64,000 nucleotides of DNA, from NCBI GenBank assembly GCA_963706595.1, contig OY970166.1, positions 4,384,001 through 4,448,000 of the forward strand, written 5' to 3'. Shown here one piece after another: positions 25,099-44,221 of this stretch. This DNA comes from an uncultured cyanobacterium. GTDB taxonomy: Bacteria; Cyanobacteriota; Cyanobacteriia; Cyanobacteriales; Nostocaceae. The translations under genes and the position numbers were made by a program. The notes under the pieces are model-generated. The model was not told the DNA's origin. It saw only the letters and a program-made list of their open reading frames with translations, and ran no database searches. Each line of letters begins with the position of its first letter. Within the stretch, counting starts at the first letter, position 1.

Positions 25099-26085
25099 TT
25101 AGATTATATCTTTTTGGTACATTTCCCAGGCCAAAGTTGTGGACACAATTTGGTCTAAATTATTATATTTTGGTTGCCAACCCAGTAACTTGCCAATTTT
25201 CTCAGCACCAGCTATCACACAAGCCGGATCTCCAGGGCGACGTTCTGTTTCAATCACCGGAAAATCTACCCCAGAAATCACCTTAACTCGTTCAATAACT
25301 TCACGAACACTGTATCCTTTTCCATAACCACAGTTGAGAACTTGGCTTTCCTTACCTTGCTCTAAATAGGTCAAAGCATCTAAATGCGCTGCTGCTAAGT
25401 CTTCAACATGAATATAGTCTCTAATTGCTGTTCCATCTGGTGTCGGAAAATCTGTACCAAAAATTTTTACTTCTGTTCTACGTTGGAGCGCAGTATCACA
25501 CGTAACGCGAATTAAATGAGAAGCGTCTTTTAACATCTGCCCCAATCGCCCACCAGGTTCGGCTCCGGCAACATTAAAATATCGTAAAATTACATAACGT
25601 AAATCAGAAGCCTTAGCATAGTCACGAATCAGCCATTCACAAGCAAGTTTTGACCGCCCATAGGGGTTAATAGGTTCAGTTGGTGAAGATTCAGTCACAG
25701 GAATCTTTTCTGGTTGTCCATAAACAGCTGCTGTGCTAGAAAAGATAATTTGGTTCACACCCACATTTTCGCAACAACGGAGTAAATTCAGAGTGTTGCA
25801 AGTATTGTTAGCGTAATAATCTAGAGGACGAGAAACAGATTCGGGTACATTCAGACTAGCAGCAAAGTGTAAAACTGCCGCAAACTGATGCTGAGAAAAT
25901 ACTTGAGAAAGACATTCAGAATCTTTTAAATCACCAACAATTAAATCACCATGTAGTACAGCTTGGGGTGAACCAGTAGAGCAATTGTCATACACCACAA
26001 CATCGTAACCTGCTTCGCCCAACTGACGAACTACATGAGAGCCAATGTATCCCGCTCCACCAGTGACTAAAACTTTTTTATTCAT
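25099..26085 (-). CDS. galE: UDP-glucose 4-epimerase
   Basis: TGGAGYIGSH, SSTAAVYG, YGRSK, LRYFNVAGA and RDYIHV. Confidence 0.95.
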   Translation of the reverse strand: MNKKVLVTGGAGYIGSHVVRQLGEAGYDVVVYDNCSTGSPQAVLHGDLIVGDLKDSECLSQVFSQHQFAAVLHFAASLNVPESVSRPLDYYANNTCNTLNLLRCCENVGVNQIIFSSTAAVYGQPEKIPVTESSPTEPINPYGRSKLACEWLIRDYAKASDLRYVILRYFNVAGAEPGGRLGQMLKDASHLIRVTCDTALQRRTEVKIFGTDFPTPDGTAIRDYIHVEDLAAAHLDALTYLEQGKESQVLNCGYGKGYSVREVIERVKVISGVDFPVIETERRPGDPACVIAGAEKIGKLLGWQPKYNNLDQIVSTTLAWEMYQKDII

Positions 26086-27497
26086 CTACCCTTACCTAAT
26101 AGTACTACTCTAATGGTTTTGAAAAAGATTGCCAAATCCAAAGCCAGAGAATAATTTTTGATGTAGTAGAGATCATAAGCTAACTTCTCGTAAGCATCTT
26201 CTACCGATGCGCCGTAGGGATACATAACCTGCGCCCAGCCTGTAATTCCAGGTTTGACGACATAACGTAAGTCATAGTAAGGAATTTCTTCTCGCAACTT
26301 GACATCAAATTCTGGTCGTTCTGGACGGGGGCCAATAAAGCTCATTTCTCCCCGGAGAACGTTTAATATTTGTGGTAGTTCATCGATTCTTGTTAGGCGT
26401 AACCAGCGTCCCACCGTCGTGATTCGAGGGTCTTGTTCACCAGCCCACTGCGCCCCCCGTTTTTCGGCATCTTGATACATAGAGCGGAATTTGTACACTC
26501 TAAAGGGCTTACCTTCGCAACCAGTTCGCATTTGTGTGTAAAACACAGGACCTGGACTATTCAACTTAATAGCTATTACTACTAGCAACATCACTGGAGA
26601 TAAAATCACGAGCAATAACCATACCAAAATAATATCTGTCAACCGCTTGAGTCTTTGACTGATGCTATCAGCCGCTAAATTAAAACCATTGCCAAAAGCC
26701 AGCCAGTTACGCTGAAGCAAAGATGAAGGAAGTTTGTACCATAGGGTTTCACAAATATCGGGAATTTTGTAGATGGAGACACCAGATAATCGTAACTGGA
26801 TTAACTGCTGTATCTGTGCATCAGATAATTTTGTTGTTACTACTACCCCTGACCAAGATTGTTGACTCCATTGGGTTAGGTCATTAAGACTCCCGGTAGC
26901 AACTCGATTACTTTTTGTGAGCGAATTGATGTTATTATGCTCTGCGCTGCTTAAAACAACTAAGCGGCCTAATGAACTGCGTTCTAGAAAATATTCTACA
27001 AAGAGGATAGCTTTTTTGTCAGCACCCAAAATTAGCCAACGACTGTTTTCAGCTTGCACTCTTGTCCACTTGGCCGCGCATATTCTTAATCCCATAGCCC
27101 AGAGTGTAAATAGCCCTAAACTGGGAAGCAAAGTACCCCGTTGCAGAAATGTCTCTGTTCTCCAACTACCAGTAAAATAAATCAGCGAGGCCACAATACA
27201 GCCGACAATAAAATTACTAATCAAAATCCGGTATGGAGCGCGTAGACCTGATATTTGGGTCTGTGGATGGTAAGTATCTGCTAAATACAGTCCCGCAATC
27301 ACTAAGAGAGCAAATAGATAAATCAAAGGGTCAAAATTATTCAGATTTTTGCCCCATCGCCACCATAGAGAGGTAGATAAACTCAAGATTAATCCCAAGA
27401 TATCCGCCAATAACAACAGGACAGAAATAACATTTCCGAATAGGATATTATTATTTTCCGATAACTTATTTTTGCCAACAGTAATATTAATAGTCAC
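26082..27497 (-). CDS. polyprenyl-phosphate glycosylphosphotransferase (priming sugar transferase, WcaJ/ExoY-like)
   Basis: N-terminal TMs; [21 protein letters not shown] and KPGITGWAQ. Confidence 0.93.
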
Positions 27498-28199: not shown

Positions 28200-30395
28200 A
28201 TGCCTTCCTATCAAGAAGACCAAGACGAGATTAATTTCCAAGAGTATTGGCTGACGGTGAAAAGACGATGGTTTCTCATAGCAACCATCATCGGTTCTGT
28301 TTTTGGCCTCACGGCGTTCATTACTTTTAGTCAAAAGCCGATTTATCAAGCCCAAGGCAAGCTGATTTTTGATAAAAATAGTGTTTCTTCCCTAGCAGGT
28401 ATCAGTGAGGGGCTGGGAGGATTAGGAGGACTAAGCGGGGTGACAAATCTCTCCAACCCTTTGGAAACCCAAGCCGAAATTATTCGATCCCACCCCCTGA
28501 TCCAAAAAACTATTGATAATTTGCAGCTAAAAGATCAAGAGGGAGAACCTTTAAAGATAGATAATTTTATGCGGAAGTTTAAAGTCCAAAGTAATCGAGG
28601 TACAGATATTTTGGACCTTTCCTACCGTAGTATTGATCCTCAAGAAGCCAAGGATACCGTCAATCAATTGATGGATGCTTATCTGGAAAATAATCTTTCT
28701 ACCAACCGTTCCCAGGCTAAATCTGTACGAGATTTTTTAACCCAGGAATTACCCCAAGTTGAGGCACAAGTTTCCAACGCGGAATTTGCATTACGTCGGT
28801 TTAAAGAAAAAAACGAGGTTGTTGCCTTAGAAGAAGAAGCTAAACAACGACTTGAAAGGGTGTATGAAATATCCAACCAAATAACTTTACTGCAGGCGCA
28901 ATTAGTAGATGCTAACAGCCGTTCTGATGCTTTGCAAAATCAATTGGCATTGAACACACAGCAAGCCACAGCACTTAGCACTTTAAGCCAGTCAAGAGCA
29001 GTACAACAAGTTTTATCAGAATACCAGAAAGTTCAAGACCAGTTGGCTGTGGAAAGATCACGATTGACAGAAGAACACCCAGTAGTCGTGAACTTGTTAA
29101 GCAAAGAAGCAGCTCTGAAAGTACAGTTAGAAGGCAGAGTAACCCAAACTCTAGGTAATTCACAGCCTATTCCAGATCAAGATTTACAAATAGGAGAACT
29201 CAAGCAAGCCTTAACTGCTAATTTGGTGCAAGTAGAAGTAGAACGGTTGGGATTGGAGAATCAAGTTAATGTTTTGACACAGGCATTTACAGGTGATCAA
29301 GCACGTCTAAGAAGCTTACCCAGGTTAGAACAAGAACAGCTACAGCTACAACGACAGCTACAAGTGGCACGAGCCACCTATGAACAAATGCTGAGACGAC
29401 TCAAAGAAGTTCAATTGCTGGAAAACCAGGATGTAGGTAATGCCAGGATTATTTCTCAGGCTTTATTGCCAGAAAAATCAGTTTCCCCGCGCATTGCCTT
29501 GAATTTGGCACTAGGAGGATTTTTAGGGATCTTATTGGCTTTTGCATCTGCTTTATTGTTAGACGCTGTAGACAAGTCAGTGAAAACAGTGGACGAAGCC
29601 GAGAAGTTGTTGGGCTATCCTTTATTAGGTAAAGTTCCTAAGCTGCCTCTTGATGAGAGTACAAGCGAGTTACCCTTATTAGATAATCCTTATTCATCCG
29701 TGAATACTGCCTTTGAAATGCTACAAATCAACCTTGGTTTTACCGTTTCTGACAAGAAACTCAAGGTAATTGTGGTGAGCAGTTGTTTGCCAGGGGAGGG
29801 AAAATCTTTTGTCACAGCTAATTTGGCAGTGGCTACAGCCCAGATGGGACAGCGAGTTCTATTGATTGATGCTGATATGCGTCGCCCTCGCCAACAAGAG
29901 GTGTGGAAAGTACGCAATTTGATGGGCTTAAGTAATATTCTGGTGGGGCAGGCTAGTTTAGCACAGAGTTGTCACGAACCATTAGTAAATTTACACTTAC
30001 TAACTGCTGGAACCATACCGCCTAACCCTGCTGCGCTCCTAGACTCAGAGCGTATGCATGAATTAGTGCAGCAAGCTGCTCAAGATTATGATTGCGTAAT
30101 TATTGATACGCCACCGTTAACATTTATTGCTGATGCCTCAATTATAGGCAAATTGGCAGATGGAATATTGTTAGTTTCTCGTCCTGGTGTGGTTAATTCG
30201 GATGCGATTAAGACTACAAAGACATTGCTAGAAAACTCACGGTTGTCGGTATTGGGTATGGTCGTGAATGGTGTATCTGGTGATAGTAGTTACTACTACA
30301 GCAATTATAATTATCAACAAAAAAATGGGGATGGTAAAAAGCATACGATTGAGTCTCAATTCAAAGAAATCACGGAGAAATGGCTAAAAAAATAG
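28200..30395 (+). CDS. wzc: polysaccharide co-polymerase / tyrosine autokinase (Wzc/GumC)
   Basis: TM, coiled coil, TM; Walker A PGEGKS, IDADMRRP, IIDTPP and Tyr-rich tail. Confidence 0.92.
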   Translation: MPSYQEDQDEINFQEYWLTVKRRWFLIATIIGSVFGLTAFITFSQKPIYQAQGKLIFDKNSVSSLAGISEGLGGLGGLSGVTNLSNPLETQAEIIRSHPLIQKTIDNLQLKDQEGEPLKIDNFMRKFKVQSNRGTDILDLSYRSIDPQEAKDTVNQLMDAYLENNLSTNRSQAKSVRDFLTQELPQVEAQVSNAEFALRRFKEKNEVVALEEEAKQRLERVYEISNQITLLQAQLVDANSRSDALQNQLALNTQQATALSTLSQSRAVQQVLSEYQKVQDQLAVERSRLTEEHPVVVNLLSKEAALKVQLEGRVTQTLGNSQPIPDQDLQIGELKQALTANLVQVEVERLGLENQVNVLTQAFTGDQARLRSLPRLEQEQLQLQRQLQVARATYEQMLRRLKEVQLLENQDVGNARIISQALLPEKSVSPRIALNLALGGFLGILLAFASALLLDAVDKSVKTVDEAEKLLGYPLLGKVPKLPLDESTSELPLLDNPYSSVNTAFEMLQINLGFTVSDKKLKVIVVSSCLPGEGKSFVTANLAVATAQMGQRVLLIDADMRRPRQQEVWKVRNLMGLSNILVGQASLAQSCHEPLVNLHLLTAGTIPPNPAALLDSERMHELVQQAAQDYDCVIIDTPPLTFIADASIIGKLADGILLVSRPGVVNSDAIKTTKTLLENSRLSVLGMVVNGVSGDSSYYYSNYNYQQKNGDGKKHTIESQFKEITEKWLKK

Positions 30396-30689
30396 TGATT
30401 CAAGCTATAAAAAATTTGTGACTCAGTTGCAAATTGAGATAATTTAACAGCAAAATATGACTTAATTTGTTTGAATGCCCTCAAAAGGCAACAGTGAAGG
30501 CGCAAGAGTCAATAACTACGCGTTACGAATTCCTCACTATGGTATTGTACATAAGGTGCTAGTTTTTAGGAGTTGGGCTTCGATGGTCTAATTGATCTCA
30601 GTCCCTCCAAACGTAACCTTCCTATCTTAATTTATATATAGGAGGTCGAATTGCAGAGAAGGTGTGACCGAAATTAGAAGCACTGAAAA

Positions 30690-30882
30690 TAGGACTTACG
30701 CATTGACAATAAATCCCAAATATTATGTATAACTAAAAGGCACATATTTCGTAGAGATTTAGCAATGCTAAACCCCTACAACACGTGTATATTTACTATC
30801 AACATCGTCATTGTTCAAAGCCGGAAATTGGCTATTTTGGTGACAGCATACCATGATTAATTTGTACAGTGCGTAAGTCCTA
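30690..30882. mobile_element. MITE with TAGGACTTACGCA terminal inverted repeats, containing a GTAG-REP
   Basis: TAGGACTTACGCA...TGCGTAAGTCCTA; same family at 63440-63533. Confidence 0.75.
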
Positions 30883-30910
30883 GATTAATCCAGTCAACCC
30901 TTAACCGTAT

Positions 30911-32728
30911 ATGCAGAGCAAAAAGCGACACAATCAGAGTCAAACCCTCATTCAAGATTTACGACAGTTGTGGGGCTACCTCAGCCGTCGCCGTCGGGTG
31001 CAGTTGGGGGTTTTGCTGCTGCTGATGCTTGTGTCTTCTCTGAGTGAGATGATTAGCCTGGGGGCAATTTTTCCCTTTCTAGGAGCCTTGACCAATGCAG
31101 AGTCGCTTTTGAATGCGCCCCAGATGCAGCCAGTATTGAAACTGTTGCAGATTGAGTCACCAGTGCAACTGGTGACGGTCTTAGCCGTGGGATTTATTGC
31201 TGCGGCACTGCTGGCTAATGGGCTGCGCTTGCTGACGCTGCACGTACGTCTTCGTTTGGCGGCAGCAGTTGGGGCTGATGTGAGTAGTCGAATTTACCAC
31301 ACCACACTACGGCAGCCCTATAGTTTCCATGTGCAGCACAACAGTAGCGATTTGATGCAGACGCTAACGGGGGATACGACGCTTCTCACTAACAATATTT
31401 TAATACCACTTCTGGCGTTGCTTACTGATGTGCTGCTGGTACCAGCTTTGATAGGGACACTGCTACTTATTGATGGCAAAATTGCCTTATGGACAGCGGT
31501 GATTTTGGGGGGAGCCTATACGCTGATTTACCGTACCCGACAACGGTTGCTGAAGCGCAATAGCCAGATTATTTCCCAATCGGGGCAGCAAAAAATCAAG
31601 GTTGTACAGGAGGGTATAGGCGGCATTCGGGATGTACTTCTAGCACATTCCCAGGACTTTTTTGAGCGTGTGTATCTGGAGGCGGAGGCTTCTTTCAAGC
31701 AGGCGACGGCAACTAATTTAATTATTTCCCAGTCACCGAGATATCTCATAGAAGCGCTGGCCTTGTCGGCGATCGCTCTACTGGCTCTGAGCTTGGGGCA
31801 AAATGGTGACTTTAGTCAAGCAGTGCCAGTGTTAGGTAGCCTAACCCTGGGGGCGAAGCGGTTGCTGCCTGCGTTGCAAGAAGGATTTGCGTCTATGGCG
31901 AAAATTCAGGGGTCACGGGCGGCTCTGGCGAGGGTGTTGGTGGCTTTGCAGCGACCAGTTGATCCGCTACTACGTACTGCTCCAGCCATGCCCTTGGGAT
32001 TAGAAAAGGAACTGCGGTTTGAGGGGGTTTGGTTTCGCTATGGGGAGAAGACGGACTGGGTGCTGCGGGATTTTAACCTGAGTATGGCGGCGAAGACGAC
32101 AGTGGGGTTTGTGGGCAGTACAGGCAGTGGTAAGAGTACAACAGCAGATTTGATTTTGGGGCTATTGCAACCCCAGAAAGGGTCTATTTGGGTGGATGGG
32201 TTGCCTTTGGAGGGTGAGCGGTTGCGCCAATGGCAGCAGAGTATTGCCCATGTGCCGCAGCAGATTTTTCTAAGTGATGGGACGATGGCGGAGAATATTG
32301 CTTTTGGTATTTCTCAGGAGCAGATTGATTTTGAGCAGGTACGAAAGGCGGCGAGGTTAGCTCAGATTGAGGAATTTATTGAAGGTTTGCCTGCCCAGTA
32401 TGATACCTATGTAGGGGAGAGAGGGATTCGCCTGAGTGGGGGTCAGCGGCAACGGATTGGCATTGCGCGGGCGTTGTATCGCAATGCGTCGGTGATTGTG
32501 TTTGATGAGGCGACGAGTGCGTTGGATAATGCCACGGAGCGAGAGGTGATGGCGGCGATTGAGGGGTTGAGTCGTCAGTTTACGATTATTTTGATTGCCC
32601 ATCGGTTGAGTACGGTGGAGCAGTGTGATTTGGTTGTGGAGTTGAGTCAAGGGCAGGTGGTGTCTCAGGGAAGTTATCAGGAGTTAATAGAAAAATCTTC
32701 GAGCTTTCAGCAGATGACAACAGGGTGA
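30911..32728 (+). CDS. ABC exporter, fused TMD-NBD (PglK/Wzk/HepA-like glycan flippase)
   Basis: GSTGSGKS, LSGGQRQR, FDEATSALD and IAHRL; located in the polysaccharide cluster. Confidence 0.88.
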   Translation: MQSKKRHNQSQTLIQDLRQLWGYLSRRRRVQLGVLLLLMLVSSLSEMISLGAIFPFLGALTNAESLLNAPQMQPVLKLLQIESPVQLVTVLAVGFIAAALLANGLRLLTLHVRLRLAAAVGADVSSRIYHTTLRQPYSFHVQHNSSDLMQTLTGDTTLLTNNILIPLLALLTDVLLVPALIGTLLLIDGKIALWTAVILGGAYTLIYRTRQRLLKRNSQIISQSGQQKIKVVQEGIGGIRDVLLAHSQDFFERVYLEAEASFKQATATNLIISQSPRYLIEALALSAIALLALSLGQNGDFSQAVPVLGSLTLGAKRLLPALQEGFASMAKIQGSRAALARVLVALQRPVDPLLRTAPAMPLGLEKELRFEGVWFRYGEKTDWVLRDFNLSMAAKTTVGFVGSTGSGKSTTADLILGLLQPQKGSIWVDGLPLEGERLRQWQQSIAHVPQQIFLSDGTMAENIAFGISQEQIDFEQVRKAARLAQIEEFIEGLPAQYDTYVGERGIRLSGGQRQRIGIARALYRNASVIVFDEATSALDNATEREVMAAIEGLSRQFTIILIAHRLSTVEQCDLVVELSQGQVVSQGSYQELIEKSSSFQQMTTG

Positions 32729-32958
32729 ATACAAAATATTGTTCTCCAAAAAATTATATAGCGGATTATTTTTGAATGGAAACTCAAATTAAATTTGAAA
32801 TATTGCCCCAATTTTCTGGATTCGATTATTTGATAGCCGTCATCAATAAACAAGATGGAACAACTCAAGAAAATTGAAAACCAAGTCGCTAATTTTTTGT
32901 GAAAAAGGGTTTTATTGATAATTTTGCAAAGAATGAAGTGGTACTAATCAGAACAAAA

Positions 32959-33852
32959 ATGTATTTATCCGATTCGGAGCGGCTTCTACGCCAAGGCGTA
33001 TCTCTGATTCCATACACGACCTGGAAAATAGGAGGTACTGCCCGATGGTTGGCAGAACCAACCCTTGATGAAACACCTGAGTTGCTCGCTTGGGCATACG
33101 CACAGGCAATTCCCGTCTACTTTCTCGGTCGCGGCTCAAATGTATTGATTGATGATGCTGGACTACCTGGGTTGGTGATATTAACTCGTAACTCTCTCAA
33201 TGAGTTGCGACGTGATGGAGACCAGATTATAGCCGGAAGTGGCGTATTTTTGCCTCACTTATCCCAATTCGCAGCACGCGAGGGCTTTTCAGGCTTCGAG
33301 TTTCTCGTTGGCATTCCTGGCACAGTAGGCGGCGCTGTAGCGATGAATGCTGGGTTGACGGTTTTTTGTCCCCGTGAGATGACAGCAATTGTTCAAGATT
33401 TTGATGTCTTAAATCTAGATGGCAGCATTGAAACACTAACTATGGAAGACGTTCATGCGGGTTATCGCCATACTGATTTGTTTGATGGAAAGCGCCTGAT
33501 TCTGCAAGCTCGTTTTCGCTTAGAAGAAGAGGGCAATCCAGAGGATATCAGGCGCAACACTTTTGCTCATCTTGCCGAACGTAAGCGTAAGCAACCACTA
33601 GATAAGCCTACTGTCGGAAGCACTTTTAAGTCACCTCCAGGGAGTAAGGGTGCCGGATGGTATATCGAACAAGCGGGTCTTAAAGGCTTTCAAATTGGTG
33701 ATGCGCGGGTAAGTCCCATGCACGCAAATTGGATTGAAAATTTGGGTGGTGCAACTGCGAGAGATATACGTCAATTAATTGCACACATTCAAAGCACTGT
33801 TAGAGACCAAATGGAAATTCATCTAGAACCTGAAGTTGTTTTTCTGAGCTAA
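32959..33852 (+). CDS. murB: MurB-like enolpyruvyl-sugar-nucleotide reductase (FAD), paralog in the polysaccharide cluster
   Basis: GRGSNVL, GIPGTVGGAVAMNAG, YRHT, KQPL, GSTFKSP, HANWI and LEPEV. Confidence 0.9.
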   Translation: MYLSDSERLLRQGVSLIPYTTWKIGGTARWLAEPTLDETPELLAWAYAQAIPVYFLGRGSNVLIDDAGLPGLVILTRNSLNELRRDGDQIIAGSGVFLPHLSQFAAREGFSGFEFLVGIPGTVGGAVAMNAGLTVFCPREMTAIVQDFDVLNLDGSIETLTMEDVHAGYRHTDLFDGKRLILQARFRLEEEGNPEDIRRNTFAHLAERKRKQPLDKPTVGSTFKSPPGSKGAGWYIEQAGLKGFQIGDARVSPMHANWIENLGGATARDIRQLIAHIQSTVRDQMEIHLEPEVVFLS

Positions 33853-34509
33853 CTAAACTTATCTTAAACAGCTATGTCTACCTTATTCAGCGCTGCTACT
33901 AAGCAACCTTCTTTATCAATGAATGTATGCGGCTCTCAGGTTCGATCTGAAAAAGTTCCGGTGAGCAGGGCTAAAAATGCCGCTACGGACAATAATTATA
34001 TGATTCAATTTCTCAGTTGTTGTTTTCTTGAATATACATTAGATTCCTCTCAAGCCTTCTGTCAAGCCTAATTGAGATGCTCTTACCCTGCCCGTAATTA
34101 GGGTTTAAGAGATTTTTTATTTGGAGTGCTTTAAATCTTTAATTTTCTAGTTCTCACGAAGAGACACATTATTTTGAATGTTTATCTAATGTAGAAATAT
34201 TAAGGATATATCAAGAATTATCGAATAAGCCTGTTTCTTCTAAAAGCATGATTGCAATTTCAGTAGGAGTAAACAAATAGTAGCAAACTAAATAATTTTG
34301 ACTCTTCCGTACCTGTTATGCTAAATACACATCTAAATAAGGTTAAAACCCTTGTTGGAAAATAATAACAGGCTTTATTATTAACGTTTGAGTCTTGGCG
34401 CTTAAATGGAGGATATAACCGCCTGTAAGCCTTGATTTTCAATGGAAATTCTAGAGTTTAATTAAAATTAAAGCATAACACATACCGAAGAACCACAATT
34501 TTAATAACT

Positions 34510-35037
34510 ATGGATTCCTCAAACTATTCTATTCTACAATTAATATCTGACATTAAATCAGATATTAAGCTAAAATCATCTTCTTTTAAAGGCGCTATTT
34601 TCTATTTTTTATTCTCGCCACAAATAAAGGTCTTATTTTATTATCGTCTTTCGCACTGGCTATATAAAAATGGCTTTGGGGGGATGTCTTATATCGTGAG
34701 TTCTTGGCAGAGTAGATACGGCTGTTACATATCCCGAAAATGTGTTGTTGGGCAACGTGTTAGATTACTTCATCCTGTAGGTATTGTTATTGGTGATGGT
34801 GTTATTATTGAAGACGATGTATCTATTTGGCAGAATTGTACTTTAGGCAGTCATGGCAAACCAAGCATACCCAAAGCGTATCCATACGTTGAAAAAGGTG
34901 TGAAGATTTACGGTGGCTCTGTTTTGATAGGAGATATCAGAATTGGAAAAAACTCTATAATTGGAGCTAATAGCGTTATTTTATCAAATGTTCCTGAAAA
35001 TTCAGTGGCTGTTGGAGTTCCCTACAAGAGAATTTAA
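34510..35037 (+). CDS. hexapeptide-repeat O-acetyltransferase (CysE/WcaB-like)
   Basis: HPVGIVIG, IGANSVI and AVGVP left-handed beta-helix motifs. Confidence 0.85.
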   Translation: MDSSNYSILQLISDIKSDIKLKSSSFKGAIFYFLFSPQIKVLFYYRLSHWLYKNGFGGMSYIVSSWQSRYGCYISRKCVVGQRVRLLHPVGIVIGDGVIIEDDVSIWQNCTLGSHGKPSIPKAYPYVEKGVKIYGGSVLIGDIRIGKNSIIGANSVILSNVPENSVAVGVPYKRI

Positions 35038-35136
35038 AATCAGGTTTTTTAAAATCAAATTTCCTGAAAAAATGTGACTTTAACCAATATCTTTGCCTAA
35101 ATAACTTTCAAGCCAAAAGTTTATTTCATATTAAAA

Positions 35137-36414
35137 ATGATAGAAAACTTCAATAAGCTCATTATTCATCCTTCCCGCTTAGTAGGAGAAGTAAGGGTTA
35201 GCGGGGCAAAAAATTCGGCTCTTCGCCTCTTGGCTGCTTCTTTACTAACACCCTATCCTGTTCGTCTTAAGAACTACCCAAGCACATTGCTTGATGCTCG
35301 TCTCCATGTTGAGATGCTTGAAGCACTTGGTAAAAACTGTAGATTAATTAGTAAGAGTGAAATAGAAATCCTAGAGGTTAACTCTCCTCCACCAGAGCTA
35401 GTGTGGGAAAAACGATCAATTCGCAACACTTTGCTAATTTTAGGTGCTTTAGTCAGTCGTACAGGTAGAGGTAAGGTGCCATTACCTGGAGGCTGTAAGC
35501 TGGGCGATCGTAAGTATGATATTCATGTGATGGTGCTTGAATCCCTGGGCGCTCATGTCTGGGAAGAGGGAGACTATCTTTGTGCCGAAGTTCCTAGCCA
35601 TCAAAAGCTCAAGGGGGCAGAAATCTTTCTGCCTATTCGCTCAACTGGAGCCACTGAAAACAGTATTATCTGCGCTTGTTTAGCTGAAGGTACAACCCGT
35701 ATTTGGGGACCACATATTCGTCCAGAAATTCATGATCTGATTAAATTTCTTTGTTCCCTTGGAGCTAAAATAGAAGTCTGTGGACAAGAAAGTATTATTG
35801 TTCAAGGAGTCCATGAATTGGGCAGTACCACCCATGAAGTAATTGCCGACAATGTTGAAGCACTCACTTGGCTAATTGGTTCTGCTGTCACCAATGGAGA
35901 TGTAGAAATTCTAGATTTTCCGTTTGAACACTTAGAAGTTCCTCTCATTCACCTGCGAGAAAGTGGCGTTCGTTTTTATCGGTTAGAAAACCGCCTTATT
36001 GTTCGAGGTTCTAGCTGTTACCCCATTGATATCAGCACAGGCCCTTATCCGGGAATTAATTCTGATATGCAACCGCTTTTTGCTATTTTAGGAGCAATGG
36101 CTAAAGGCGAAAGCCGTATCATTGACCTCAGATTTCCTGGACGCTACGCTTATGCAGAGGAACTCGCTAAAATGGGAGTGACTTATGAGGTCAAGGATAA
36201 TCTTTTAGTGATTCAGGGAGGCCATAGACTTCAGGGAACTGAAGTAATAGCCCTTGACTTAAGAGCTGGTGCAGCCCTGATGATTGCAGGTTTCATAGCA
36301 GATACTCCAACCACTATTACCAATGCATGGCAAATTTTTAGAGGTTATGATCAGCTAAATAAAAAGTTATCTCAGCTTGGTGTTAGTGTCTTCAGTGAAA
36401 TGCAAGTATTTTAA
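35137..36414 (+). CDS. murA: MurA-like enolpyruvyl transferase, divergent paralog in the polysaccharide cluster
   Basis: SGAKNSAL, LPGGC..G.R, STGATEN, PYPGINSDMQP, DLRAGAAL and RGY. Confidence 0.9.
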   Translation: MIENFNKLIIHPSRLVGEVRVSGAKNSALRLLAASLLTPYPVRLKNYPSTLLDARLHVEMLEALGKNCRLISKSEIEILEVNSPPPELVWEKRSIRNTLLILGALVSRTGRGKVPLPGGCKLGDRKYDIHVMVLESLGAHVWEEGDYLCAEVPSHQKLKGAEIFLPIRSTGATENSIICACLAEGTTRIWGPHIRPEIHDLIKFLCSLGAKIEVCGQESIIVQGVHELGSTTHEVIADNVEALTWLIGSAVTNGDVEILDFPFEHLEVPLIHLRESGVRFYRLENRLIVRGSSCYPIDISTGPYPGINSDMQPLFAILGAMAKGESRIIDLRFPGRYAYAEELAKMGVTYEVKDNLLVIQGGHRLQGTEVIALDLRAGAALMIAGFIADTPTTITNAWQIFRGYDQLNKKLSQLGVSVFSEMQVF

Positions 36415-36553
36415 AAACGAGTTTTTAGCAAGCAAGTATGAACTAAGTTAATGAAATTGAAAACTTTAATTGCTTCCAACCAGGGTTAAATTGGATTAGA
36501 AAACTTATCTAATTAGAGGGTGTTTGCGTATCTATTCTAGGTGAAATATAGAA

Positions 36554-37573
36554 GTGATTCATACTACTACTAAAGAAATTTTAGATAAACCACTTGTTTC
36601 TATTGTTTCGTGCTTTTACAATCGGGCAAATTATGTCAAGCGTTCTGTTGATAGTCTACTAAAGCAGACATATTCAAACATTGAGATTCTTCTAGTAGAC
36701 GATGGCTCAACAGACAACACGTTAGATGAACTGGTCTCTTATAAAGATCCACGAATTCGCCTGATAAGACATGAAAACAAGGGACTTGTACGTGCTTTAC
36801 GTGCTGCAATTGCATCATCTCAAGGGGAATTAATTGCAATTCATGGCTCCGGAGATATTTCTTTACCTCAGCGAATAGAGATGCAAGTTGGCTTGCTGAT
36901 AAAAAATTCTGATATTGGGGTTGTCGGCTGCTATATGCGCGATTTCAATATAGTGAAAAATAATTGGGACAACATATGCAGAACTATAGAAGAGGATCAG
37001 CTATCTCAATTAATTACAGAAAATCCCTTTTCTCACGGAGAAGTGATGTTTAGGCGAAGCTGTTATGAACAAGTGGGCGGCTATCGTGAATTTTTTGAGT
37101 TTTCCCAGGATCGGGATCTTTGGTTAAGAATGGCTCCAGTAACTCGTTTTGCTGTTGTTCCAGAAATCTTATATGAAAGGGACGCAGTTGAAGGTTCTGT
37201 AACTAAAGTTCCCTCAAAGGCTAGAAAGCAAGCTCATTTATCAGAATTTGCGATCGCTTGCGCTATTACCAGAAGGGATCAAGGATTTGATCCACTGGAT
37301 AGAGATGGTCCTGAAGCTTTTAAACGTCTAGCTAACACCAGTTCGAGATTACAAATTCGACTGAGATACTTAGTATCTCGCTACTTGGCAGATCACCAGT
37401 TTGATGCCGCTCAGGAATTAATGTCAGAAGTGGTTTCTCTAAATGCTTCGGCTTTTAATAGATTGACTCTGACAGCCATAACATTGGCTCAAAAAATTCC
37501 AGTTTTCCGCAAACCGCTGCAACTGATATTTCAATGGCGCTTAAGGCTCATTAGTTTCCAAAAAAGCAGTTGA
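36554..37573 (+). CDS. glycosyltransferase family 2
   Basis: LVSIV, VDDGSTD and NKGL; the DxD position reads HGSGD. Confidence 0.85.
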   Translation: MIHTTTKEILDKPLVSIVSCFYNRANYVKRSVDSLLKQTYSNIEILLVDDGSTDNTLDELVSYKDPRIRLIRHENKGLVRALRAAIASSQGELIAIHGSGDISLPQRIEMQVGLLIKNSDIGVVGCYMRDFNIVKNNWDNICRTIEEDQLSQLITENPFSHGEVMFRRSCYEQVGGYREFFEFSQDRDLWLRMAPVTRFAVVPEILYERDAVEGSVTKVPSKARKQAHLSEFAIACAITRRDQGFDPLDRDGPEAFKRLANTSSRLQIRLRYLVSRYLADHQFDAAQELMSEVVSLNASAFNRLTLTAITLAQKIPVFRKPLQLIFQWRLRLISFQKSS

Positions 37574-37675
37574 GAAGAGGTGCGATCGCATTAGCAAATA
37601 CTCAGCTAATCTTGCTTAAATCTGAGGAAGTACAATTAATTAAGTCCATTTTAAAACTAAGAGGAAATACAAAGA

Positions 37676-38593
37676 ATGGAGCCATTGGTTAGTGTAGTGA
37701 TGTCTGTTTTTAATGGCGAAAAGTATGTAACTGATGCTATTGATAGTGTTATTAATCAAACTTATAAAAACTGGGAATTAATTATTATTGATGATGGCTC
37801 AACAGACAGCACAGCATCTCTTATAAAAAACTATCAGGATCGGCGAATACAATATATCTTTCATAAAAATATGGGGCTAACTAAATCCTTAAATAAAGGT
37901 ATTAAACTGTCTAGAGGCGAGTATATAGCACGGATAGATTCAGATGATCGCGCTTTTCCAGAAAGGTTTGAGAAACAGGTAGAGTATTTTGTAAGAAATC
38001 CAGAAGTAGTATTAATAGGTTCATCATACTATAAATTCGATGCTTCTACTAGAATGTCTTCTATTTTCACTCCTCCTCTAGATGATTTGGGCTGTAGAAA
38101 ATTATTAAAACTTGGTCATAGTCTATTCCATCACAGCTCAGTAATGTTTAAGAAACAAGTTGCTGGTGAGATGGTTCTCTATGATGAAAACTATAGGGAA
38201 GCTCAAGATGTTAGACTCTGGATCACCTTGTTAGGTAAAGGGAAAGCGGCTGCATTGTCAGAAACTCTTTGCTGCATTCTTAGTTCCCATTCTGGGAGTA
38301 TATCATCTAATCGATCTCCATTAGAGAGTGCAAAGTTTCAGTGGCACTTTTCTAGAATTGCGCGTCATGAATTAGATGGGAATTTCTATGACTTGCTTCT
38401 AAGTTTTAAAAGTATTTTAAAAGGGCTATTACTTAACTCTTTGAAGGTTTTATTTGTATATACCAAATTTGTATATACTGCGCTATACTTGTATCTATTC
38501 TCTTTATACTGTGCCTCAAAAGGGAGGAAAGGCAACCAGGTAGATTCAATGATTGTTGAGATATGGCAGCGTAATTATTTGAAAAAAATTTAG
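37676..38593 (+). CDS. glycosyltransferase family 2
   Basis: VSVVMSVFNGE, IDDGSTD and RIDSDD. Confidence 0.9.
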   Translation: MEPLVSVVMSVFNGEKYVTDAIDSVINQTYKNWELIIIDDGSTDSTASLIKNYQDRRIQYIFHKNMGLTKSLNKGIKLSRGEYIARIDSDDRAFPERFEKQVEYFVRNPEVVLIGSSYYKFDASTRMSSIFTPPLDDLGCRKLLKLGHSLFHHSSVMFKKQVAGEMVLYDENYREAQDVRLWITLLGKGKAAALSETLCCILSSHSGSISSNRSPLESAKFQWHFSRIARHELDGNFYDLLLSFKSILKGLLLNSLKVLFVYTKFVYTALYLYLFSLYCASKGRKGNQVDSMIVEIWQRNYLKKI

Positions 38594-38614
38594 CAAGAAT
38601 AGGCTAATGTTAAA

Positions 38615-39919
38615 ATGAATTTAAAGTTAAGCAAATTGGCTTCTGATTGGTTTTTAATCGTGTTACTGTTTCTTTACATTTATTCTCCAGATTTTTCATT
38701 TGTAGGATTTAATAACTCAGGAATAGTTCTATTTCCACTAGCTATTTTTGGTTATGCTTTCTTTCTGAAGCCCAGATATATAATATCTTTCCTTACAAGA
38801 AACAAGGTAATTGTCGTATTTCAATTTTTGATATTATTTTTAGTGTTGCTTAGTACTATACTGCAAGTTTTTCAAAACTCAGCTAATAATGTTTCACTTG
38901 CAAGCCAATATCCTATATCTCTGGTTAGATTTTATTTTGAGGTAATAGTTGCATCTGTTGCTCTACATTGTCTATTCGCTGTGAGAAAAAAAGAGCAAAT
39001 AAATGATCTAATTAATGCTTTTTTTTGGATAATTTCTATTCAATTTGCAATTACTTTGCTTTCACTAATTAGTCCCTCGCTCAGAGACTACATAAACTTC
39101 TCTATTCTCAATCCAAACTCAAAGCTTATACAAGCTGACTGGCTATATCAGAGACGCGGATATGGACTTGCGTCAGGGCATTTATTTTTTTATCCCTTAT
39201 TCAATGGATTTATTCTATCAATAGCACTATGGGGTTCTGTTTCCAGCTTTAAAAAGAAAATAAATTATTTGGTTTATGCCTTAATGGCACTATTTCCAAT
39301 TTTCCTTAATGCACGAGTGGGTCTTATTTCAATTCCATCGTTCATTGTTTCATTACTTTTAATTAAACCTTTTAACCTGCGCTATACGCTGGGATTGGCA
39401 CTAACTACTATTTCCACAGGAACTCTATCCATATTATTATTCTCTTTTTTAGTTCAGCTTGATATTTTTGGTTCAAGTACACTTAGATGGATTTACGAGG
39501 GTATTTTACAATACCAAGCATTCTTTTCTGGTCAATGGCAAGATGTAACAATACTCAATGCACTTTTGGATGGTCATGTTCACTTTCCAACGAATCTTTT
39601 AATTGGAGATGGGAAGTATTTATTTCAAAACGAATCTATTTCCTTTAACAGTGATATTGGCTATATTAACTACTTATATTTTGGAGGTTTATTGTATTCT
39701 ATATTACTTTACGCTCCTTTTGTTTGGATATTCTGGAAAGCCATACTTAAAACAGACAATATAGCTCTTCGAGGCATTCTTTTAAGTGGATTAATTATAA
39801 TTTTTATTGCTAATTTTAAGGGGATTATTTTTCAAAGTAATTCTTTAACGCGAGCTTGTTTCCTTATGATAATATTTATACTTTTTGAGAAATCTAAAAA
39901 TATCAAAATATTTCTCTAA
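38615..39919 (+). CDS. polytopic membrane protein, probable Wzy polymerase
   Basis: About 10-12 hydrophobic segments, ARVGL and SDIGYI loop motifs; AT-rich; cluster context. Confidence 0.7.
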   Translation: MNLKLSKLASDWFLIVLLFLYIYSPDFSFVGFNNSGIVLFPLAIFGYAFFLKPRYIISFLTRNKVIVVFQFLILFLVLLSTILQVFQNSANNVSLASQYPISLVRFYFEVIVASVALHCLFAVRKKEQINDLINAFFWIISIQFAITLLSLISPSLRDYINFSILNPNSKLIQADWLYQRRGYGLASGHLFFYPLFNGFILSIALWGSVSSFKKKINYLVYALMALFPIFLNARVGLISIPSFIVSLLLIKPFNLRYTLGLALTTISTGTLSILLFSFLVQLDIFGSSTLRWIYEGILQYQAFFSGQWQDVTILNALLDGHVHFPTNLLIGDGKYLFQNESISFNSDIGYINYLYFGGLLYSILLYAPFVWIFWKAILKTDNIALRGILLSGLIIIFIANFKGIIFQSNSLTRACFLMIIFILFEKSKNIKIFL

Positions 39920-40006
39920 ATAGCCTTGCCTAAAATAAAATTTTCATGGTATGTTGATTTACACAACCAATTAAGCAAGCACAAAAATCTTCACAGAAAA
40001 AATTAA

Positions 40007-40777
40007 ATGCTTCCTACTTATGTTGATATTGTCACAATTGCGAGAAATTCAGATAGTGTAATATTGAAAACTTTAGAGAGTGTTAGTTCTCAGACATATG
40101 AATATATAAATCATATTATTGTTGATGGGGAATCAACAGATAAAACCTTACAAGTTATTCAAAATTTTTCTCATAAAAAAAAGATAGCTATTCACTCGCA
40201 AGCACCTTTGGGTATTTCCAATGCTTTTAACACAGGGTTAAGCAAATCATGCGGTGAGTTAGTTATTTTTTTGAATTCAGGGGATAGATTGGTTAGTAAC
40301 AATATTGTTCAGCAGATTCTTGATTCTTATCAAGCTAAAAATTGGCTATGGGCTGTTGGTGAAACAATATCAGTTAGCCGCAGAGGATATTTGAAAAGGC
40401 ACGTCAGACAGCATAGCAAGTGGGAACAGAAATTGTTTTGGTATCGGAACCCTGTATGTCATCAGTCTACTATTTTCTCTCACAAGCTTATAGAACAAGT
40501 AGGCTTATACAATGAACAGCTTTCTTTAGAAATGGATTATGATTTTAACATCAGATGCTCATTAGTGGCTGATCCATTCCTGTTATATTTGCCAATATCA
40601 TACTATGATACGTGCGGTGTATCCTCTAGACGAGTATTCCAAAGCTATTTCATGCAATCAGAGATACGTAAGAAATACTTTCCATTGAGCATAACTCGTA
40701 ACTTAATAATTGAAAGTGTAGGTTTTTTAAAAGCAATCCAGCGTCTTTTCATGATACCCATTAAGCTTTTTTTGTGA
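40007..40777 (+). CDS. glycosyltransferase family 2 (WcaE-like)
   Basis: IVDGESTD, FLNSGD, CHQS and MDYDF. Confidence 0.87.
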   Translation: MLPTYVDIVTIARNSDSVILKTLESVSSQTYEYINHIIVDGESTDKTLQVIQNFSHKKKIAIHSQAPLGISNAFNTGLSKSCGELVIFLNSGDRLVSNNIVQQILDSYQAKNWLWAVGETISVSRRGYLKRHVRQHSKWEQKLFWYRNPVCHQSTIFSHKLIEQVGLYNEQLSLEMDYDFNIRCSLVADPFLLYLPISYYDTCGVSSRRVFQSYFMQSEIRKKYFPLSITRNLIIESVGFLKAIQRLFMIPIKLFL

Positions 40778-40952
40778 TGGAGGTTTCTTTAAAACAAAAA
40801 TATTAAACATAAAAAAATAGAGTCAACCATTATCCAATCATCATTTGCATGAACTAGCTATTTGTGTAAAAATCATGTTTGTGAGAAAATGTCAATACCA
40901 AAAACAGATTTCGTGAGATGAATAAAAGTCTACGCAACTTATAACGTTATAC

Positions 40953-42017
40953 ATGATTCCTAATACGATCTCCCCTAAATTAACATTAGCAATACCAACT
41001 TATAACGAAGCAGCGAATATAGAGCAGGTAGTGAAAGGATTCCTTTCAACAAAATATACCAATTTAATAGAGGTATTCGTTGCTGATGGTGGTAGTACAG
41101 ATGGAACCCAAGATGTTGTTAGAAACTTAGCCTTGGAAGATTCTAGAGTTAAACTTTTACATAACCCCTTAAAAGTTCAATCAGCTGGACTAAATCTCAT
41201 ATTAGAGGAATCTAATGGCGATATTTTCCTGAGAGCGGATGCTCATTCAGACTATGCACCTGAGTATATTGAAAAGTGTGTCGAAGCATTATTATCGTCT
41301 CAAGCTCTCAATGTTGGTGGGGCGCAGCGTTTTGTTGGTAGAACAGCTTTTCAAGCCAGTGTAGCTTTAGCTTCTAAAAGTGTTTTGGGTAGTGGAGGAG
41401 CCAAATATAGGAACCCTGAGTATGATGGCTATGCTGATACAGTCTATATGGGATGTTTTTGGAGACAGACATTACTGGATATCGGCGGGTTTGATGTATC
41501 AAATCACCCTAATGAAGATGCTGAATTAAATCAAAAATTACTTAATATTAATCCAAAAGCAATTTATATAAGTTCTAAAATTCGCGTCTGGTACTATCCC
41601 AGAAAAACATGGAAATCTCTTTGGATTCAATATTTTAAATACGGTCATGGTCGCTACTTAACAACTACCAAACACTCAATTAAGTCCCAAGTGAGGGGTA
41701 TGACACCATTTCTTGTCTTATCCATATTAGTTATTTTTGTTTTGATTGGTTTGTTGTTTCCTCAACTACGGCTACCTATTGAAATATTAATTTTAGTCTG
41801 TGTGTTTTTACCCTTTCTAGAAAGCTGGCGAATAGCCCTAAAGTTTAGCAAAAACTTTGAAGAAGAAATTTGGCGGGGGGATAAAAATAAAATCCCCTCA
41901 TTCCTGAGTCGCTGGTTTGCTTGTGGAGTCGTTTTACTAACTATGCCAATCGCTCATTCTTGTGGTTATGGCTATCAGTTAGTCAGACATAGGGTTTTTA
42001 GAGTTAGTGGTTGCTAG
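40953..42017 (+). CDS. glycosyltransferase family 2 (ExoA-like)
   Basis: IPTYNEA, ADGGSTD, RADAH, NEDAELN, QYFKYG and C-terminal TMs. Confidence 0.87.
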   Translation: MIPNTISPKLTLAIPTYNEAANIEQVVKGFLSTKYTNLIEVFVADGGSTDGTQDVVRNLALEDSRVKLLHNPLKVQSAGLNLILEESNGDIFLRADAHSDYAPEYIEKCVEALLSSQALNVGGAQRFVGRTAFQASVALASKSVLGSGGAKYRNPEYDGYADTVYMGCFWRQTLLDIGGFDVSNHPNEDAELNQKLLNINPKAIYISSKIRVWYYPRKTWKSLWIQYFKYGHGRYLTTTKHSIKSQVRGMTPFLVLSILVIFVLIGLLFPQLRLPIEILILVCVFLPFLESWRIALKFSKNFEEEIWRGDKNKIPSFLSRWFACGVVLLTMPIAHSCGYGYQLVRHRVFRVSGC

Positions 42018-42640: not shown

Positions 42641-44221
42641 ATGTACACAACAAATCAACCCGATCCAGTTCGCTTAGAAATCTTCAAAAACCTGTATCAA
42701 TTTATCGCAGAACAAATGGGGATTATTCTCCAGAACACAGCAGCATCGGTAAACATCAAAGAACGCCTCGATTTCTCCTGCGCTATTTTTGACACTTCGG
42801 GGTTATTAGTAGCCAACGCTCCCCATATTCCTGTACATTTAGGCTCAATGAGTGAAAGTGTCCGCAGCTTAATTAACGATAAAGGCGACACCATTCAACC
42901 CGGAAATGTTTACCTATCTAATAATCCCTACAACGGAGGAACTCACCTTCCCGATGTTACAGCTATTACCCCTGTTTTCCTCGAATATAATACTTCATCC
43001 CCTACTCCCCACTCACCATTCGCCACTCCCCTGTTTTACGTTGCTTCTCGTGGACACCAAGCCGATATCGGTGGAATTACACCCGGTTCCATGCCTCCCC
43101 ACAGCACCACAGTAGACGAAGAAGGCATTTTATTTGATAACTTCCTCTTAGTTAAACAAGGAAAATTCCAAGAAACTTCAGTAAGAGAAATCCTCGCAAA
43201 TCATCCCTATCCGGCGCGTAACCCTGACCAAAATATAGCTGATTTCAAAGCTCAAATTGCTGCCAATGAAAGAGGAGTGCAAGAACTCCGAAAAATGGTT
43301 GCTCAATACGGCATTGAAACAGTGCAGTCTTACATGAATTTTGTGCAAGACAATGCGGAAGAAGCAGTAAGACGAGCCATAAATCTGCTCAAAGATGGCT
43401 CTTTTAGTTATGCAATGGATAATGGGGCAGAAATTAAAGTTACAGTCACAATTGACAAAGAAAACCGCAGTGCAATAATTGATTTTACTGGCACATCTCC
43501 ACAAATAAATAGTAACTTTAATGCTCCCAAAGCTGTAACTCAAGCCGCAGTTTTATATGTCTTCCGCACTTTAGTTGATGATAATATTCCCCTCAATGCT
43601 GGGTGTCTTAAACCTCTAGAAATCATTATTCCCGTTGGCTGTATGCTTAACCCCACATATCCCGCCGCAGTGGTAGCCGGTAACGTGGAAACCTCCCAAA
43701 CCATTGTCGATGCTTTATATGGTGCATTGGGTGTCATGGCTGGTTCTCAGGGAACTATGAATAATTTTACCTTTGGAAATCAGCGTTATCAATATTATGA
43801 AACCATCTGCGGTGGTTCTGGCGCAGGAGCTTATTTTGATGGTACTGATGCAGTGCATACCCACATGACTAACTCCCGATTAACTGACCCCGAAGTTTTA
43901 GAAACCCGTTATCCTGTATTAGTAGAAAGCTTTAGTCTGCGTCCTGATAGCGGCGGTAAAGGTAAACATTCCGGTGGTGATGGTGTAATTCGCCGCATTC
44001 GGTTTTTAGAACCCATGACAGCCAATATTCTCTCTAGCCATCGCTTAGTTCCTCCCTTTGCATTAAATGGAGGGGAACCAGGAGAAGTAGGACGCAACTG
44101 GATAGAACGTCAAGACGGAACCCAGGAGAATTTAGACAGTACCGCCACCGTAGAAATGCAGCCAGGGGATGTTTTTGTGATTGAAACCCCTGGGGGAGGA
44201 GGGTTTGGATGTGTTGCTTAG
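42641..44221 (+). CDS. 5-oxoprolinase / hydantoinase B subunit (C-terminal half)
   Basis: NIKERLDFSCA, PVHLGSM, GGTHLPD, YYETICGG and TPGGGGFG. Confidence 0.92.
   Translation: MYTTNQPDPVRLEIFKNLYQFIAEQMGIILQNTAASVNIKERLDFSCAIFDTSGLLVANAPHIPVHLGSMSESVRSLINDKGDTIQPGNVYLSNNPYNGGTHLPDVTAITPVFLEYNTSSPTPHSPFATPLFYVASRGHQADIGGITPGSMPPHSTTVDEEGILFDNFLLVKQGKFQETSVREILANHPYPARNPDQNIADFKAQIAANERGVQELRKMVAQYGIETVQSYMNFVQDNAEEAVRRAINLLKDGSFSYAMDNGAEIKVTVTIDKENRSAIIDFTGTSPQINSNFNAPKAVTQAAVLYVFRTLVDDNIPLNAGCLKPLEIIIPVGCMLNPTYPAAVVAGNVETSQTIVDALYGALGVMAGSQGTMNNFTFGNQRYQYYETICGGSGAGAYFDGTDAVHTHMTNSRLTDPEVLETRYPVLVESFSLRPDSGGKGKHSGGDGVIRRIRFLEPMTANILSSHRLVPPFALNGGEPGEVGRNWIERQDGTQENLDSTATVEMQPGDVFVIETPGGGGFGCVA

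Follow-up and report, generated by a model that had tools for sequence, protein, structure and literature searches.

Why should a cyanobacterium keep, within a cluster of polysaccharide genes, two genes whose products annotation pipelines and databases name as the peptidoglycan enzymes MurA and MurB? The question is raised by a stretch of 64,000 nucleotides (the window) from an uncultured member of the Nostocaceae (assembly GCA_963706595.1, contig OY970166.1, positions 4,384,001 to 4,448,000). Here a murB-like gene (murB*, 32959..33852), an acetyltransferase gene (34510..35037), a murA-like gene (murA*, 35137..36414) and a family 2 glycosyltransferase gene (GT2a, 36554..37573) lie in this order on the + strand. 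Lactyl-ether sugars occur in many bacterial polysaccharides, and a first-pass annotation of this DNA had proposed that the pair makes a lactylated sugar nucleotide for one of the GT2 enzymes of the cluster. The comparative evidence supports this idea and narrows it, given that a specific GT2 subfamily travels with MurA*. The MurA-MurB module probably supplies a lactyl-ether (or enolpyruvyl-ether) sugar to a polysaccharide, in an accessory pathway that is widespread and, it seems, unstudied. A literature search found no earlier description of MurA/MurB paralogues in polysaccharide clusters; since the subscription carbohydrate and O-antigen journals were mostly beyond its reach, this is weak evidence of novelty.

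An accessory MurA-MurB pair

The separate housekeeping genes that the first-pass annotation presupposed are both present elsewhere in the genome: a murA (C1:1240258-1239032) whose product is 37% identical to MurA*, and a murB directly after murC (C1:5383926), 39% identical to MurB*. Nine of ten other carrier genomes tested also have a separate, higher-scoring murA. In the planctomycete G674, TIGR01072 matches only two MurA copies, both from cassettes at polysaccharide loci (L065 and L067), and no housekeeping murA was found with that query.

A search of species-representative genomes returned 71 MurA* loci, 69 of them at 56-87% identity and the other two at 36%. The 69 span six phyla (Bacteroidota, Pseudomonadota, Planctomycetota, Verrucomicrobiota, Deinococcota and Cyanobacteriota). 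As judged from clustering and the Pfam labels of cluster representatives, another polysaccharide gene family lies within the fetched span in 66 of the 69, a flippase in 60 and murB in 54, and an acetyltransferase homologue stands no more than two genes from murA* in 38. In a quick tree of 22 rows, built without three long-branch sequences and without clade IV, a branch with 99% support in the Shimodaira-Hasegawa-like approximate likelihood-ratio test (SH-aLRT) divides the accessory MurAs of clades I-III from the housekeeping MurAs. This bears out the suggestion that the copies belong to a clade of their own, associated with polysaccharide loci. Protein clusters that match a member of clade I at E 1e-150 number at least 2085, and those that match a member of clade II at E 1e-100 at least 852.

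Within that tree MurA* nests with other cyanobacterial cassette copies, beside an Opitutaceae sequence. A grouping of MurA* with cyanobacterial housekeeping MurA was rejected by the approximately unbiased (AU) test (p-AU 7.5e-6), which indicates that the cassette was imported already specialised; the earlier picture of a peptidoglycan module repurposed in this lineage, by duplication of the host murA, has to be given up. MurA* and MurB* are thus confidently predicted to be horizontally acquired second copies. The clade is absent from all ten congeners, and in a sample of 301 genomes from the order it was found in two. The nearest named relatives of MurA* are Anabaenopsis copies, 87% identical. 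The locus of Anabaenopsis elenkinii (L004:8331-13969) is broken up by transposase-like open reading frames (ORFs), with a partial second murB after murA; the span fetched contains no orthologue of GT2a. In Leptolyngbya sp. PCC 6406 (L010:8717-12488), murA* lies between a GT4 gene and an unknown ORF of 377 amino acids, with no murB or motif-bearing GT2 within 10 kb on either side. A plasmid of Qingshengfaniella (L078:9440-13241) carries a minimal cassette of an acetyltransferase-like gene, murA, murB and a GT2 gene. The cassette is surrounded by genes of osmolyte and catabolic functions and has no further polysaccharide gene in its vicinity.

MurA* passes the NF006873 profile (377 against a cut-off of 297) and falls under the cut-off of the murA equivalog TIGR01072 (361 against 392.7). 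Its AlphaFold model (pLDDT 92.3) gives TM-scores of 0.92 to MurA, 0.87 to NikO and 0.77 to AroA, and in this model it has the two-domain EPSP-synthase/MurA fold, nearer to MurA than to AroA. By alignment, K25, N26, R96, C120, R125, D310, R336, R376 and R402 of MurA* correspond to K22, N23, R91, C115, R120, D305, R331, R371 and R397 of the Escherichia coli enzyme, where we take K22, R331, R371 and R397 to be catalytic. Catalytic roles of C115 and of D305/R120 have been described (PMC6801904, PMC13750019). The catalytic residues are unchanged in 68-70 of 70 accessory-clade members, and the cysteine targeted by fosfomycin is present in all 70. MurA* is therefore a MurA by fold and catalytic residues, and stands apart in its equivalog score and in its position outside the housekeeping MurAs.

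The substrate pocket combines conservation and change. Of the 11 residues of E. coli MurA in contact with uridine diphosphate (UDP)-N-acetylglucosamine (UDP-GlcNAc) in structure 1UAE (Table 1 of PMC13750019), seven are identical in MurA*, including N23 and D305, which suggests that the substrate is a UDP-sugar modified at O-3. In E. coli numbering, N23, D305, F328 and R331 round the O-3/O-4 site are invariant in the clade, and R120, D123, S162 and G164 of the pyrophosphate- and base-binding positions are kept; the base-binding loop is changed (P121K, V122Y). Around the active site the clade has the fixed changes A92N, W95L, V161R, E188R, R232N, P303N, V327R and N330G. Arginine at position 327 occurs in 115 of 115 sequences of clades I-III, in none of three from clade IV and in none of 13 housekeeping-like sequences, where each sequence was grouped with its nearest reference and two of those 13 are unconfirmed as housekeeping.

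MurB* is predicted to be an accessory FAD-dependent enolpyruvyl-ether reductase of the short, Firmicutes-like type. It passes TIGR00179 (223 against a cut-off of 144.5) and NF010480 (304 against 259) and has FAD_binding_4 and MurB_C domains. Its ORF may start at GTG 32899 or at ATG 32959; close relatives are mostly 292-300 amino acids long, which favours the ATG. The motifs GYR, GSTF and LEPEV are intact, and R170, S221 and E292 (counted from that ATG), presumably catalytic, align with solved MurBs. The loop after the NAG motif is altered with respect to the host copy in all cassette lineages. In a FastTree phylogeny MurB* groups with cyanobacterial and verrucomicrobial cassette copies.

A glycosyltransferase partner without its acidic motif

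GT2a has H-G-S-G-D where its neighbour GT2b has I-D-S-D-D in a pairwise alignment, so that both aspartates of the DxD motif are replaced by glycine and the canonical DxD of a metal-dependent GT2 is missing. The third aspartate and an invariant QD motif are kept, and all 15 homologues taken from MurA* loci share G98, G100 and D101. In TarS, D91, D93 and D94 are each required for activity, and Mn2+ is bound by an aspartate that GT2a lacks (PMC5156392). A guess that the first aspartate of the DxD binds O-3 of the donor was not borne out; the passages on TarS in PMC5156392 give no direct contact between D91 and O-3.

The association was also found in the reverse direction. When metagenome contigs were searched with the motif alone, 109 loci were confirmed and 80 were kept, of which 57 carry murA or murB. 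Among the 47 loci with at least 4 kb upstream, murA or murB is present in 44, murA in 40 and both in 30. It was this search that also revealed MurA clades II-IV. On plasmids, seven of eight GT2a matches adjoin a MurA paralogue. In the Nostocaceae, with five candidates scored per genome, the GT2a profile matched 31 of 389 genomes, and among the 30 loci fetched the motif was seen in G000 and G313 only, both of which carry MurA*. GT2a is thus the probable dedicated transferase of the lactyl sugar.

In loci without GT2a, a divergent GT4-like family adjoins murB. The 69 loci divide into 20 with the GT2a type, 37 with the GT4-like family, none with both and 12 with neither. The GT4-like family has G-T-G-R-x-x-x-E where BshA has E-S-F-G-x-x-x-x-E (a weak alignment, E 0.002), and the first glutamate of this EX7E motif is assumed here to bind sugar. 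Among 281 genomes from one flavobacterial family, it matches the same three as MurA* does, at least one of which was in the training alignment. That two unrelated glycosyltransferase folds have both lost acidic residues of the donor site fits a donor that brings its own carboxylate, and we infer that this carboxylate may replace the residues lost from GT2a and from the GT4-like family.

Other arrangements came from the same searches. In phage-like contigs (the viral L181-L183, for example L183:6734-8879, and the metagenome loci L124, L127 and L129), a clade II MurA paralogue overlaps a GT2 gene with H-G-S-G-D, with small unknown ORFs around and no murB nearby; the phage-contig MurA matches phrog_25097, a family of unknown function. 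This MurA-GT2 unit may serve to attach an enolpyruvyl or lactyl sugar to phage DNA or to a glycan of the host. In L082, L084-L090 and L103, MurAs of clades III/IV occur with Wzx and a motif-bearing GT2, without murB. Clade IV, which lacks the arginine at position 327, adjoins ugd-, manC- and phosphomannomutase-like genes.

Taken together, the best reading, and in our judgement a likely one, is that a UDP-3-O-lactyl sugar is formed by MurA* together with MurB* and transferred by GT2a. MurA* would transfer enolpyruvate from phosphoenolpyruvate (PEP) to O-3 of a gluco-configured UDP-sugar, with release of phosphate, as expected from the chemistry of the MurA family. MurB*, following that of its own family, would reduce the enol ether with NADPH and FAD to a 1-carboxyethyl (lactyl) ether, which would be (R) if the stereochemistry of MurB is kept. 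GT2a would then take the 3-O-substituted donor and add it, beta-linked, to a lipid-linked repeat unit begun by a WbaP/WcaJ-type enzyme and extended by the remaining transferases of the locus, GT2b to GT2d. The acetyltransferase would O-acetylate the repeat unit, the ATP-binding cassette (ABC) protein would flip it, and a polytopic membrane protein together with Wzc would polymerise it. The three-gene module would in this way feed a lactyl-ether sugar into an exopolysaccharide (EPS) or sheath of the Wzy type.

The sugar and the competing explanations

Given the module, UDP-glucuronic acid (UDP-GlcA), leading to nosturonic acid, 3-O-lactyl-GlcA, is the foremost candidate for the donor, at or slightly below an even chance. 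It is favoured because the new arginine at 327, beside F328, would suit a uronate carboxylate. A gene resembling UDP-GlcA 4-epimerase occurs in 27 of the 69 loci, immediately upstream of murA* in 12; the label depends on the enzyme names of structures 6zl6 and 5u4q as we take them to be. The genome has a gene of the UDP-glucose dehydrogenase (ugd) family, and no close uge or tviB orthologue. Its best UDP-GlcA-epimerase-like match, outside the window (G000:C1:4486617-4487571), is split over two reading frames and is possibly a frameshifted short-chain dehydrogenase/reductase gene. Nosturonic acid, defined in PMC6017307, is beta-linked where known (PMC5983295), as an inverting GT2 would give, which was counted for UDP-GlcA. 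MurA* is also carried by some isolates of Stenotrophomonas maltophilia, a species with an EPS in which three uronic acids occur along with a substituent of D-lactate (cited in PMC4559654). The locus nearest to this S. maltophilia MurA* is L156, at 81%; the S. maltophilia locus itself was not found among 320 scored genomes of its family, one of which matched the clade.

Overall, that the lactylated sugar is a uronic acid is a possibility that we put somewhat below even. More tentative still is the full proposal that MurA*, MurB* and their glycosyltransferase are the missing route to 3-O-lactyl uronic acids of the nosturonic-acid type. An ancient MurA lineage would have gained the arginine for the uronate carboxylate, and both the GT2 without DxD and the GT4-like family without the first glutamate of EX7E would have lost acidic residues for which the lactyl carboxylate of the donor substitutes. 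If this were true, the signature would allow lactylated polysaccharides to be foretold from sequence alone across thousands of genomes, and the MurA-GT2 half would have been borrowed by some phages.

Several points weigh against the lactyl-sugar pathway or its uronate form. The loss of two aspartates from GT2a could mean a metal-independent or an inactive glycosyltransferase. The 69 loci are partly redundant, some being short or near-duplicate, and are not independent; the counts of uronate genes in them stand without a background rate, and no ugd, tviB-like or uge-like gene was seen in the fetched flanks of 38 of the 69, including all the cyanobacterial ones. Residue 327 of MurA (Arg332 in MurA*) may touch the ligand by way of its backbone. 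In the family the clade is rare, with 3 of 389 genomes (G000, G313 and G314), so that the link first drawn with the nosturonic acid of Nostoc commune fails as a general Nostoc route, and the link with S. maltophilia is at the level of the species, with none at that of the strain. Furthermore, murB is missing from the fetched span in 15 of the 69 MurA* loci, several of them on short contigs. The MurBs of the cassettes belong to three lineages or more in the FastTree phylogeny, which indicates repeated recruitment of the reductase partner.

The pair might instead keep its ordinary substrate and provide extra UDP-N-acetylmuramic acid (UDP-MurNAc), or its (S) epimer, isomuramic acid, to be built into the polysaccharide by GT2a. 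This is a sub-case of the lactyl-sugar pathway without new specificity. The MurA* catalytic residues are all kept and the listed UDP-GlcNAc contacts mostly so, MurB* passes the murB equivalog, and murB is missing from the phage cassettes and from some of the bacterial ones, as though the reaction could be completed by MurB of the host; lactyl-GlcNAc is found in E. coli O69 and O150 (PMC7685785). However, the cell already makes UDP-MurNAc, which would render a deep, separate MurA clade with invariant pocket changes needless, and in every lineage of cassette MurB the loop after NAG is unlike that of the host copy. We regard this explanation as unlikely, if well worth keeping in mind, and UDP-GlcNAc as the donor, given the module, as having a minor but appreciable chance. 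A neutral hexose as donor, given the module, is placed at that same level. Its product would be 4-O-lactyl-mannose (Man4Lac) made from GDP-mannose, the sugar of Cyanospira capsulata, or another neutral lactyl-hexose, an explanation that is unlikely and slightly less credible than extra UDP-MurNAc. The relatives closest to MurA* among named species, the Anabaenopsis copies at 87%, speak for it insofar as Anabaenopsis is close to Cyanospira, which we assume and which the literature search did not confirm. The altered base-binding loop of MurA* (P121K, V122Y) and the manC- and gmd-like genes of the genome point the same way. On the other side, N23, D305, F328 and R331 round the O-3/O-4 site are invariant, gmd or manC occurs in only 11 of the 69 loci, and the 4-O-lactyl sugars of enterobacteria go with pyruvyltransferase genes (wfeP, and those of Klebsiella K22, K37 and K66, whose lactyl structures are given here as we presume them). 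The presence of Man4Lac in the EPS of C. capsulata is documented (PMC8466920, PMC12679510).

A further explanation, an improbable one, makes the lipid-linked repeat unit the substrate of MurA*, or has the enolpyruvyl ether stay unreduced, with GT2a as a non-catalytic or metal-free partner. Such an arrangement would agree with the absence from GT2a of the aspartate that binds Mn2+ in TarS, and with the cassettes of clades III/IV and of phages that have no murB. It is at odds with the retention of R120, D123, S162 and G164 in MurA*, of the third aspartate and the invariant QD motif in GT2a, and with an intact murB at the locus. Least probable is a spare peptidoglycan module, serving as a backup, for wall synthesis connected with the sheath or heterocyst, or for tolerance of fosfomycin, and placed in a polysaccharide island by chance. 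The names given by annotation pipelines would suit it, as would G674, where the cassette copies are the only MurA matches. Yet the genes have no murC-G companions, their polysaccharide context is near-obligate across phyla, they have an exclusive transferase partner, none of ten congeners has the cassette, and the fosfomycin-target cysteine is kept in 70 of 70.

The surrounding locus and known systems

The genes of the locus were identified by Pfam and NCBIfam profile scans of ORFs, 30 of the 53 ORFs of the window being scanned with Pfam. Of the hallmarks of a Wzx/Wzy-type locus, an initiating transferase, Wzc and glycosyltransferases are present. On the - strand lie a flanking galE (UDP-glucose 4-epimerase; 25099..26085, TIGR01179 469 against a cut-off of 262) and the initiating polyprenyl-phosphate hexose-1-phosphate transferase of the WbaP/WcaJ type (26082..27497; TIGR03025 390 against 296, PF02397), divergent from wzc. 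The remaining genes are on the + strand, and begin with the Wzc-like co-polymerase and tyrosine kinase (28200..30395; Wzz, GNVR and P-loop domains), the conserved left anchor of the locus. It is followed by a MsbA/PglK/HepA-like ABC transporter (30911..32728), which probably flips the repeat unit in place of Wzx, of which none was found in the cluster. The hexapeptide-repeat (LbH) acetyltransferase (PF00132; EpsC/CysE-like, under the cut-off) probably O-acetylates the repeat unit. Downstream of GT2a, which matches PDB entry 2z87 at E 8e-33, are GT2b (37676..38593; an ordinary GT2 with DSDD), a polytopic membrane protein of 434 amino acids (38615..39919; GC 30.7%), GT2c (40007..40777) and GT2d (40953..42017), GT2b to GT2d all matching PF00535. 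GT2d is the final gene before a conserved right flank (DUF218, hydantoinase B).

The order, strand and intactness of the murB, acetyltransferase and murA genes between wzc/ABC and GT2-GT2-X-GT2-GT2 were read correctly at first pass; the labels given to two neighbours were less secure. The supposed Wzy has eight hydrophobic segments in a Kyte-Doolittle scan and no Pfam match at E 0.1, and its label as a probable polymerase follows from position and hydrophobicity; the supposed flippase is under all listed NCBIfam cut-offs. The ABC transporter gene lies upstream of murB* also in the cyanobacterial loci L003, L004, L008, L009 and L081. It has a GC content of 51.5% (55% at third codon positions), where most neighbours have 31-43% and the genome 41.3%. 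The first-pass statement that the window holds no murC-G, mraY or fts genes agrees with the Pfam scan, in which none was found among the 30 ORFs. No cluster ORF matched PS_pyruv_trans (PF04230), and the five matches of the genome to this family sit elsewhere.

Between murB* and the acetyltransferase gene there is an AT-rich non-coding gap of 657 bp with no long ORF inside, so that a single transcript is at most a possibility; scans for promoters and terminators gave no more than chance numbers (54 against 43.4 +/- 5.8, and 11 against 11.1, respectively). Orthologues of wzc, at 80-87%, occur in three of ten congeners, which have the same right flank and other genes in between, one sharing the ABC transporter only; the region is thus the swappable part of a capsule-like locus. 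Genes for hydantoinase/oxoprolinase A (21841-23934) and B (42641-44221) flank the polysaccharide locus, about 19 kb apart, and it looks as if it had been inserted between them. Three GCGATCGC sites were seen in genes 28200-42017, where about 11 are expected at the genome rate.

The module would be a second route to lactyl-ether sugars, since the sole genes found assigned otherwise are of the pyruvyltransferase type. With three purifiable enzymes and an easy assay by phosphate release, a long-open biosynthetic question becomes directly testable, and a GT2 subfamily that works without the DxD aspartates would be of mechanistic interest. No new principle is implied, given that the chemistry is that of MurA and MurB and that NikO is a precedent for recruitment.

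Housekeeping MurA (EC 2.5.1.7, TIGR01072) and MurB (EC 1.3.1.98, TIGR00179) resemble MurA* and MurB* in fold (TM 0.92 for MurA) and in catalytic residues, which makes it very likely that MurA* and MurB* follow the same chemistry, in two steps with PEP and NADPH, to a lactyl ether on a UDP-sugar. Unlike the housekeeping pair, MurA* and MurB* belong to a separate clade at 37-39% identity, with MurA* under the equivalog cut-off and invariant substitutions in the pocket, and they are accessory and patchy, linked to glycosyltransferases and flippases and not to murC-G. The first-pass annotation had known of no genes assigned to the synthesis of lactyl-ether sugars, which needs correcting: in E. coli O124/O164, the pyruvyltransferase gene wfeP is assigned to the synthesis of UDP-glucolactilic acid (PMC7685785). 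Clusters with wfeP are like the present module in that a nucleotide-activated lactyl-ether sugar is the product of genes within a polysaccharide cluster; WfeP itself belongs to the polysaccharide pyruvyltransferases (PMC7685785) and does not have the MurA fold. In Klebsiella K22, K37 and K66, pyruvyltransferase genes occur without pyruvate ketals (PMC4616057). E. coli genomes gave no match to the gammaproteobacterial murA*-murB* cassette of Psychrobacter in a distant blastn search, which, at the level of DNA, has a limited reach. NikO, the enolpyruvyl transferase of nikkomycin synthesis, shows that the MurA fold can be recruited for a different uridine substrate, with a 3'-hydroxyl as the acceptor (PMC6801904). 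It differs from MurA* in acting on UMP in antibiotic synthesis, in being only 25% identical and in having no reductase or glycosyltransferase partner. Finally, GT2a shares its GT-A core with the GT2 family (SpsA, TarS and the chondroitin synthase K4CP), from which its subfamily departs in having H-G-[SA]-G-D throughout in place of D-x-D-D, a motif seen in none of the solved structures aligned.

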